From Escherichia coli (lineage in GTDB: Bacteria; Pseudomonadota; Gammaproteobacteria; Enterobacterales; Enterobacteriaceae), in assembly GCF_003334785.1 (NCBI RefSeq), contig NZ_QOWV01000009.1: a DNA stretch of 64,000 nucleotides; one strand, written 5' to 3'. The position numbers and the translations under genes are program-made. Position 1 is the first letter of the stretch. Every line of letters starts with the position of its first letter. Shown here in pieces: positions 62,998-63,345 of this stretch. Below the pieces are notes generated by a model. That model did no database searches and had not been told where the DNA came from. It saw only the letters and a list, made by a program, of their open reading frames with translations.

Positions 62998-63345
62998 TCA
63001 CTTCTTCTTGTTCATCATCGCTTTCAGGTCAGCGAATGGGTTGTACTTCGCTTCACCGACATCTTTCTGCGCATCTTCCCCTGCGATAACGGTCGTACCA
63101 TACTGATCCGCTTCGGTATATTTCGAATGCTCATGATCGTGGCAATAGAGACACAACAATTCCCAGTTACTGCCATCTTCCGGGTTATTGGTATGGTCGT
63201 GATCAATGTGGTGAACGGTAAGTTCACGCAGGTTGGAATAAACAAACTCGCGGGAACAGCGACCGCAGACCCACGGATAGATTTTTAATGCTTTTTCGCG
63301 ATAGCCGCTTTCTAACCGCGCATAGTTTTTTGGGATGATAGCCAT
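62998..63345 (-). CDS. yajD: HNH-nuclease-family protein YajD (function uncharacterised)
   Basis: ORF 62998..63345 (-), 115 aa; C/H-rich HNH-like motif CGRCSREF...HHIDHDHTNNPEDGSNWELLCLYCHDHEH. Confidence 0.88.
   Translation of the reverse strand: MAIIPKNYARLESGYREKALKIYPWVCGRCSREFVYSNLRELTVHHIDHDHTNNPEDGSNWELLCLYCHDHEHSKYTEADQYGTTVIAGEDAQKDVGEAKYNPFADLKAMMNKKK

Follow-up and report, generated by a model that had tools for sequence, protein, structure and literature searches.

T4 endonuclease VII (PDB 1e7d/1en7; PF02945) carries a zinc-bound beta-beta-alpha-metal core after an N-terminal helix, the HNH proteins of Geobacter (Gme HNH, 4h9d) and of phage GVE2 (5h0o) are small stand-alone nickases, and the HNH domain of human ZRANB3 (5mkw) is part of a large eukaryotic fork-remodeling helicase. 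Other nucleases act on translation: SmrB of Escherichia coli and Cue2/NONU-1 are endonucleases of collided ribosomes, and Rae1/YacP is a ribosome-dependent NYN RNase. These small nucleases are recruited to stalled ribosomes, where their cleavage of mRNA enables rescue factors to work. Here, we analyze yajD, a gene in a 64,000-nucleotide stretch of E. coli DNA (NCBI RefSeq assembly GCF_003334785.1, contig NZ_QOWV01000009.1; referred to here as the window). Because YajD is the founding member of an annotated family (NF008448/PRK11295; UniProt "Putative HNH nuclease YajD"), whose length and architecture it shares, the gene is already known as an object; the family name is an annotation rather than a demonstrated function. 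yajD is universal in E. coli, its rate of evolution is about as low as that of ribosomal proteins, and no function is assigned to it in the open literature searched.

Very probably, YajD is an active nuclease of cellular housekeeping that is recruited to its place of action. Beyond what a first-pass annotation of the window had said of the gene, the analysis brings out its extreme conservation, an invariant C-terminal motif, and the absence of a mobile-element or defense context. Three leads are new to our knowledge and in the literature searched: the tethered C-terminal motif, the lack of a conserved enteric neighborhood despite constraint like that on ribosomal proteins, and recurrent operons with arfB. 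The constraint, the putative docking motif, and the ArfB operons turn an anonymous y-gene into specific experimental questions. The reading that we put forward, tentatively and as a possibility rather than an expectation, is that YajD is a tethered housekeeping nuclease acting in the rescue of stalled ribosomes. If this link is true, YajD would represent a new enzyme class in bacterial ribosome rescue.

YajD is predicted to be a zinc-stabilized HNH nuclease

The 115-amino-acid product matched the Pfam HNH family (PF01844) with an E value of 1.5e-12, with residues 27 to 75 aligned to the whole model (positions 1 to 47 of 47), in keeping with the first-pass description of a stand-alone small HNH-motif protein. 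It scored 210.3 bits (cutoff, 87) against the NCBIfam equivalog NF008448, "YajD family HNH nuclease," with residues 2 to 113 placed on profile positions 2 to 113 of 113; this score and 100% DNA identity to the K-12 gene establish that the gene is yajD and, with the Pfam match, leave no room for a chance ORF. Among solved structures, T4 endonuclease VII was a borderline match by sequence alone (E = 0.008, residues 15 to 73), and neither a significant profile match to its family PF02945 nor the C-terminal dimerization domain of that family was found in YajD. Membership among the RNA-guided IscB/Cas9 HNH proteins was likewise not supported, as YajD reached 20.3 bits against a cutoff of 175 for NF040563 and is a single-domain protein of 115 residues. 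The YajD family is compact, comprising 640 clusters at 50% identity (E value threshold of 1e-3, 1.84 billion representatives scanned). Its neighbors in AFDB were all named "Putative HNH nuclease YajD" and came from Gammaproteobacteria, Magnetococcus, and relatives; members were also found in betaproteobacteria (Rhodocyclales) and in one Myxococcota.

Conservation was assessed in an alignment of 163 unique family members from two unbiased scans, with residues numbered as in E. coli. Y15, R16, L20, C27, C30, R32, L42-T43-V44-H45-H46, N54, P55, G58, N60-W61-E62, L64, C65, H69, E72, and H73 were invariant, and H49, H51, and C68 were 99% conserved. The CxxC...CxxC zinc site was therefore kept throughout (C27, C30, and C65, 100%; C68, 99%), as were the putative catalytic residues H46, N60, and H69 (100% each). 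An AlphaFold2 (AF2) model built from 35 homologs had a mean predicted local distance difference test score (pLDDT) of 78.6 overall, with values near 90 for residues 20 to 70. Its elements were, in order, a helix (residues 8 to 22), a second helix (36 to 41), two strands (42 to 46 and 61 to 65), and a third helix (66 to 82), followed by a low-confidence stretch (83 to 103) and a last helix (105 to 113). The predicted fold, an antiparallel strand-strand-helix unit of the beta-beta-alpha-metal type, resembles that of solved HNH nucleases, and the best structural matches of the model were all DNA nucleases. In this layout, H45-H46 ends the first strand, the D48-H49-x-H51 cluster comes next, N60 precedes the second strand, and the helix carries H69, E72, and H73.

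Active-site residues were placed by secondary structure and alignment rather than by model coordinates. On this basis, H46, at the end of the first strand, is the putative general base, and N60 would be the structural Asn. H69, which immediately follows the second CxxC and has H45, D48, E72, and H73 nearby, is placed as the probable holder of the catalytic metal. There is strong support from sequence for C27, C30, C65, and C68 as a structural zinc site that would hold the fold together. The residue roles of endonuclease VII are established, and the two proteins share an H-x-D-H-D-H cluster and a metal ligand directly after a C-x-x-C pair; YajD C65-x-x-C68-H69-x-x-E72 aligns with endonuclease VII C58-x-x-C61-N62-x-x-E65. 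Unlike the standard HNH assignment, the HMMER alignment to endonuclease VII pairs D48-H49 of YajD with D40-H41. Under either register, HNH logic or the endonuclease VII alignment, a complete predicted catalytic center is kept. The first-pass annotation had named a missing catalytic His/Asn arrangement as evidence against a nuclease; in the comparison with HNH nucleases that it proposed, the His/Asn/His set and the four-Cys site were both present and, with C68 at 99%, invariant.

These observations strongly support the prediction that YajD is a chromosomal housekeeping HNH nuclease of the zinc-stabilized beta-beta-alpha-metal type. Its fold is like that of the Gme and GVE2 enzymes, but these lack the conserved linker and tail described below, the GVE2 protein is a phage enzyme, and the gene for YajD belongs to the chromosomal core and is much more strongly constrained. 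The ZRANB3 domain is 20% identical to YajD, and the docking motif of ZRANB3 is unrelated in sequence. Alternatively, YajD might be a catalytically silent zinc-finger adaptor whose HNH fold only binds nucleic acid or protein, as in the HNH-like DotN/IcmJ. Its strong surface conservation would suit a binding module, no activity has ever been reported for it, and its deletion produces no phenotype. Yet H46, N60, and H69, along with D48, H49, H51, E72, and H73, are invariant or nearly so over a wide phylogeny, which would be unexpected in a degenerate pseudo-enzyme and makes the adaptor explanation improbable.

A conserved C-terminal motif follows a variable linker

The linker between the HNH core and the C terminus is rich in Gly, Ala, Ser, and acidic residues, and its length varies across the family. 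The tail beyond it has the consensus A-K/T-Y/H-N-P-F-A-D-L-K-x-M/L-M/L-x-K-K, an amphipathic helix with a basic end. Across the 163 sequences, P103 (96%), F104 (99%), A105 (98%), and L107 (100%) are followed by two hydrophobic residues and lysines, so that the tail is conserved to the same degree as the active site. It is present from Enterobacterales to the Rhodocyclales and Myxococcota members. We propose that the tail serves as a docking helix at the end of a flexible tether. A search of the tail peptide against all PDB chains returned no match.

Members of a distant subgroup (P0213, P0217, P0226, P0229, P0241, P0245, P0246, P0262, and L091) have neither the linker nor the PFAxL tail. Their sequences end shortly beyond the HNH helix in a conserved "GLLGDYL," and Gly replaces H49; the one long contig of this subgroup (L091) carried no informative neighbors. 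P0194 (560 amino acids) was considered as an informative domain fusion and set aside, as it looks like read-through into the neighboring gene. At the other end of the protein, non-enteric homologs carry, near the N terminus, one helix some 30 residues long (residues 6 to 35 in the L146 fusion model, motif LDRIVAEARR...YREQALK), which is shortened to 15 residues in Enterobacterales and exchanged for a Ser-rich stretch in Vibrionales. This long helix could be a dimerization or substrate-binding element.

yajD is a constrained core gene

yajD was present in 5,426 of 5,426 complete E. coli genomes, and orthologs in Vibrio, Photobacterium, Ferrimonas, and Moritella were 70 to 80% identical, with 75 to 80% for those of Vibrio and Ferrimonas. 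Among 18 Enterobacterales, the median ratio of nonsynonymous to synonymous substitution rates (dN/dS) was about 0.03. Synonymous sites were saturated in half of the pairs, which makes constraint, not recent transfer, the explanation for the high identity. A previous study gave a dN/dS of 0.0101 and detected the protein in three mass spectrometry experiments (Hu et al. 2009).

Because free-standing HNH genes are often of a selfish or conflict kind, we weighed whether YajD is a homing endonuclease, a restriction or defense effector, or a toxin. The gene lies at different sites in related genera and on large Pantoea plasmids, and YajD gave weak matches to PADLOC ZorE (E = 4e-7) and to PHROG HNH families. 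These matches, however, are limited to the generic HNH core, with residues 22 to 76 falling on the last 57 of 282 positions of the ZorE model. No full-length match to anti-phage effectors (ZorE, Cap5, PtuB, or retron HNH) and no recurrent partner genes were found, and no immunity, methylase, or partner defense genes lie nearby. The hallmarks of phage or homing HNH endonucleases, namely phage, intron, or intein residence, a place next to terminase, and a patchy distribution, were not seen. Phage genomes yielded only HNH-core matches of at most 51% identity that lack the tail, and 2.9 million viral contigs held a single true member, at a contig edge. The Pantoea plasmids are large and, as seen in pVag2, the only one inspected, nonmobilizable. 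Given also a gene that is universal in E. coli and a dN/dS of 0.03 with saturated synonymous sites, a selfish nuclease is barely credible. A phage, plasmid, or defense origin of yajD was rejected as well.

In Pantoea, yajD (about 94% identical) resides on large plasmids, away from secF (P. vagans pVag2, L193, and 60 other plasmid records). Several PLSDB records of E. coli or Salmonella "plasmids" with yajD are mislabeled pieces of chromosome, because they are chromosome sized or linear and carry queA-tgt-yajC-secDF.

The enteric neighborhood of yajD is not conserved

yajD follows secF in E. coli, E. albertii, Salmonella, and Pseudocitrobacter. The gammaproteobacterial sample of 80 loci contained only 5 with secF or tsx near yajD, the neighbors differed even among enterobacterial genera, and clustering of the flanking open reading frames (ORFs) returned generic families only. 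Synteny with secDF and tsx was accordingly dropped as a functional clue, and the position of yajD in E. coli carries no functional information.

This pattern bears on a possible tie of YajD to the Sec machinery or the membrane, under which the basic amphipathic tail would target the membrane and the position after secDF would be functional. yajD does lie directly 3′ of yajC-secD-secF in E. coli and Salmonella, and the hydrophobic moment of the tail (0.30 to 0.46) is in the range of the MinD membrane-targeting helix (0.45), a comparison with known membrane or docking helices that does not discriminate. This synteny is nevertheless confined to the five loci above, a terminator separates secF from yajD, and the invariance of P-F-A-x-L indicates binding in a pocket of a protein and not at a lipid surface. 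We therefore consider a Sec or membrane role very improbable.

The cluster representatives P0124, P0148, and P0222 sit on contigs of only 0.6 to 2.3 kb. In two different contexts in Rhodocyclales, within Accumulibacter-type loci (L084 to L088), yajD is preceded on its own strand by a Phosphodiest gene (PF01663); in one case, a large PAS/GGDEF/EAL gene stands between the two genes.

Outside the enteric bacteria, yajD recurs beside arfB

Non-enteric loci were sampled by scanning metagenome contigs with an alignment headed by the YajD family consensus. Neighbors were counted after removal of alternative-frame ORFs overlapping yajD, which form spurious clusters in GC-rich loci. Only two neighbor families recurred: ArfB and an NYN-domain protein. 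Counting by the GGQ motif and tblastn gave eight ArfB loci, to which three more (L194, L195, and L197) were added. In all five arrangements, arfB lies on the strand of yajD. In Tag-DUF3012-YajD-ArfB (L146, L194, and L195), yajD and arfB are adjacent, with 11- and 1-bp spacers or a 1-bp overlap; in PLD-YajD-ArfB-NYN (L092 to L094), the overlap is 4 bp; and in TrxC-ArfB-YajD (L112, L113, and L197), the gap is about 80 bp. arfB follows yajD after 236 bp in L175, and in L162 the order is ArfB-MarR-YajD.

All five neighbors tested were NCBIfam ArfB equivalogs (179 to 191 bits; cutoff, 100). In an unbiased metagenome sample (80 loci, 508 kb), arfB was seen 5 times, in four arrangements, against about 0.13 expected by chance on the assumption of one arfB per 4-Mb genome. 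The enrichment of ArfB near yajD is thus about 40-fold, with a Poisson estimate of about 1e-5 for at least four independent cases; L194, L195, and L197 were chosen by similarity to L146 and hence are not independent. YajD proteins from different ArfB arrangements were 59 to 71% identical to one another.

Genes for putative RNases of the NYN (LabA) type lay 0.5 to 3 kb from yajD homologs in three unrelated arrangements (positions 7930 to 8787 in L092 to L094, 5972 to 6817 in L142, 5918 to 7090 in L150, and 329 to 886 in L195; also L172), with one directly 3′ of YajD-ArfB. Xanthomonadales-type loci have the order tilS-NYN-accA, followed by yajD, which is divergent from accA and convergent with dnaE.

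A possible role in ribosome rescue

We propose that the disordered, variable linker tethers the catalytic domain to the invariant C-terminal helix (P-F-A-x-L-x-x-L/M-L/M plus lysines). This helix would dock YajD onto a highly conserved cellular partner and so restrict cutting to the location of that partner. The most likely arena would be stalled-ribosome rescue, since ArfB alone recurs as an operon partner in other proteobacteria. There, YajD would cut nucleic acid at stalled translation complexes, most simply mRNA, and the cut may create or clear the truncated-mRNA state that ArfB resolves. Like ArfB itself, YajD would be a non-essential backup activity. In the most specific version, which we hold to be rather unlikely, YajD is a hitherto unrecognized ribosome quality-control endonuclease of Proteobacteria whose tail docks on stalled or collided ribosomes, or on a coupled transcription-translation complex, and whose HNH center cuts the mRNA to yield truncated-mRNA complexes for resolution by ArfB and transfer-messenger RNA (tmRNA). 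If this is true, translational surveillance would gain its first nuclease with an HNH fold, and YajD would be a candidate for the unidentified ribosome-dependent mRNA cleavage activity in E. coli. SmrB, Cue2/NONU-1, and Rae1/YacP are functional analogs only, with unrelated folds (Smr, NYN); unlike for these enzymes, ribosome binding and RNA cleavage by YajD are hypotheses from gene neighborhood alone. An independent, weak hint is the placement of yajD in a predicted "J, translation" set of orphans, with a probability of 0.106 (Hu et al. 2009).

Several points weigh against a role in ribosome rescue. ArfB adjoins yajD in only about 7 to 10% of non-enteric loci and in 0 of 80 loci from Enterobacterales, Vibrionales, and Alteromonadales, and arfB is absent from the E. 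coli window. Most characterized HNH enzymes cut DNA, and the Tag DNA glycosylase gene flanks yajD in one of the ArfB arrangements, where a DNA role would fit equally well. An AF2 model of a YajD-linker-ArfB fusion had a predicted template modeling score of 0.42, and the pLDDT of the tail fell to 41 to 51, in what is a weak test with eight paired sequences; these values lend no support to direct binding of YajD to ArfB. The ribosome could simply be where YajD and ArfB come together.

Genetic and literature data are also unfavorable. A yajD deletion in Salmonella grew, resisted stress, and infected mice like the wild type (PMC3878590), and the translation score quoted above is low. Colony sizes of the Keio yajD mutant on amikacin, neomycin, streptomycin, and tetracycline were inconsistent between replicate pairs (Hu et al. 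2009). The disagreement was several-fold on amikacin and neomycin and about 2-fold on streptomycin and tetracycline, and the values were therefore not used. The literature searched contained no biochemical data on YajD and no nucleic acid cleavage assay, nothing linking ArfB or ribosome rescue with an HNH protein, and nothing linking an HNH protein with A-site mRNA cleavage. Searches under the identifiers b0410, JW0400, and P0AAQ2 returned nothing relevant, and the open literature searched contained no functional assignment, which agrees, as does the lack of a phenotype in the Salmonella single mutant, with the first-pass statement that yajD has no assigned function.

The main competitor is that YajD is a DNA nickase or structure-specific endonuclease of repair, recombination, or fork processing, recruited by its tail to a replisome or repair protein such as the sliding clamp or SSB. 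Its models are T4 endonuclease VII, the small nicking enzymes Gme and GVE2, and the HNH domain of ZRANB3, which in that protein is paired with a short C-terminal clamp-binding motif. All of the best structural matches being DNA nucleases speaks for this explanation, as do the weak similarity to endonuclease VII over residues 15 to 73, which includes the H-x-D-H-D-H cluster (E = 0.008), the Tag gene next to yajD in one clade, and dnaE beside it in Xanthomonadales-type loci. In addition, Salmonella cbpA/yajD and ychN/yajD double mutants are sensitive to hydrogen peroxide, but the yajD single mutant shows no such phenotype (PMC3878590). Across about 170 loci, no DNA repair gene recurred beside yajD, the tail is unlike the QL[SD]LF clamp motif or any other partner motif known to us, and the ArfB operons are left unexplained. 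We judge a DNA-directed YajD to be somewhat unlikely; if it were true, YajD would be a new housekeeping repair nuclease.

The yajD locus forms its own transcription unit

The ORF list contains yajD with the 115-residue product and the exact Cys/His motif CGRCSREF...HHIDHDHTNNPEDGSNWELLCLYCHDHEH that the first-pass annotation had read (Table 1). A 681-bp stretch around the gene is 100% identical in DNA to E. coli K-12 MG1655, in which yajD is annotated as "HNH nuclease YajD" between secF and tsx. A TAA stop lies in frame three codons upstream of the ATG, which thus opens the longest frame in this strain. The ORF list also has several ORFs of 53 to 73 codons that share DNA with yajD (63024 to 63409), in a different frame or antisense to it; they look like by-products of composition rather than genes.

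Table 1. Features of yajD, its product, and the flanking DNA (positions in the window)
Feature	Position	Strand	Details and basis
yajD coding sequence	62998..63345	-	115 codons plus TGA stop, ATG start; ORF list, K-12 identity, NCBIfam match
N-terminal helix alpha1, residues 8-22	63280..63324	-	Invariant Y15, R16, L20; AF2 and 163-sequence conservation
HNH/beta-beta-alpha-metal core, residues 27-75	63121..63267	-	Zinc ligands (predicted) C27, C30, C65, C68
Variable linker, residues 83-98	63052..63099	-	pLDDT 52-62; gaps, low conservation
Conserved C-terminal motif, residues 99-115	63001..63051	-	163-sequence conservation; helix 105-113 in model
5′ untranslated and putative promoter region of yajD	63346..63424	-	Weak AGG Shine-Dalgarno and element GGAAACTGCGCGTAACCCTACATTT
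secF intrinsic terminator-like hairpin and T-run	63425..63454	-	Terminator scan; upstream boundary of yajD
REP element directly 3′ of yajD stop	62954..62982	-	29 nt; repeat comparison in window
Second REP-type palindrome	62885..62915	.	BIME-like pair with first REP
tsx terminator hairpin	62828..62854	+	11-bp stem, convergent with yajD; terminator scan

The secF terminator hairpin bounds yajD upstream, so the gene is its own transcription unit; with the tsx terminator on the other side, yajD stands alone between tsx and secDF, as the first-pass annotation had it. The separation from tsx by a cluster of repetitive extragenic palindromic (REP) elements, also described there, was borne out by the two palindromes, which form a pair like that of a bacterial interspersed mosaic element (BIME). 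The first REP has an exact copy at 3894 and a copy with one mismatch at 48664 in the window, with 0 matches in shuffled sequence. A sub-threshold Rfam match to the REP-derived naRNA4 covers 62879 to 62915 (29 bits). Published work reports a NusG-suppressed pause within yajD and an intrinsic terminator downstream that is active in vitro (PMC10268239, PMC12207403); the in vitro validation of the terminator 3′ of yajD comes from PMC12207403, and this terminator may be any one of the downstream hairpins described here. These pause and terminator data support an independent yajD transcription unit.

A scan for consensus sigma-70 sites upstream of yajD found none. Enterobacter and Cedecea loci, in which other genes stand upstream, carry the element GGAAACTGCGCGTAACCCTACATTT 5′ of yajD as well. 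An element of about 25 nt, GGAAACTG-GC-TAACCCTACATTT (63365 to 63395, minus strand), is common to E. coli, E. albertii, Enterobacter, and Cedecea (L006, L013, and L016). Because this element is kept in Enterobacter and Cedecea despite a different upstream gene, its sequence suggests that yajD may have been relocated together with its promoter-proximal region. In E. coli, positions 63365 to 63395 look like a sigma-32 promoter, CTTGGGAA-N11-CCCTACAT, of which the −35-like part is not conserved. A sigma-32 heat shock promoter, CTTGGGAA-N11-CCCTACATTT, was set aside as an unconfirmed candidate, since relatives lack the −35-like part and mostly have ordinary −10 boxes.

The spacer between tsx and yajD (62822 to 62997, REP/BIME) differs from one E. 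coli strain to another. Of 5,426 E. coli genomes, only 3,806 match 80% or more of the 681-bp query, and many align only from query position 193 onward, where yajD and the DNA upstream of it lie. The corresponding Salmonella spacer instead carries an annotated type I toxin gene of the Ldr family.

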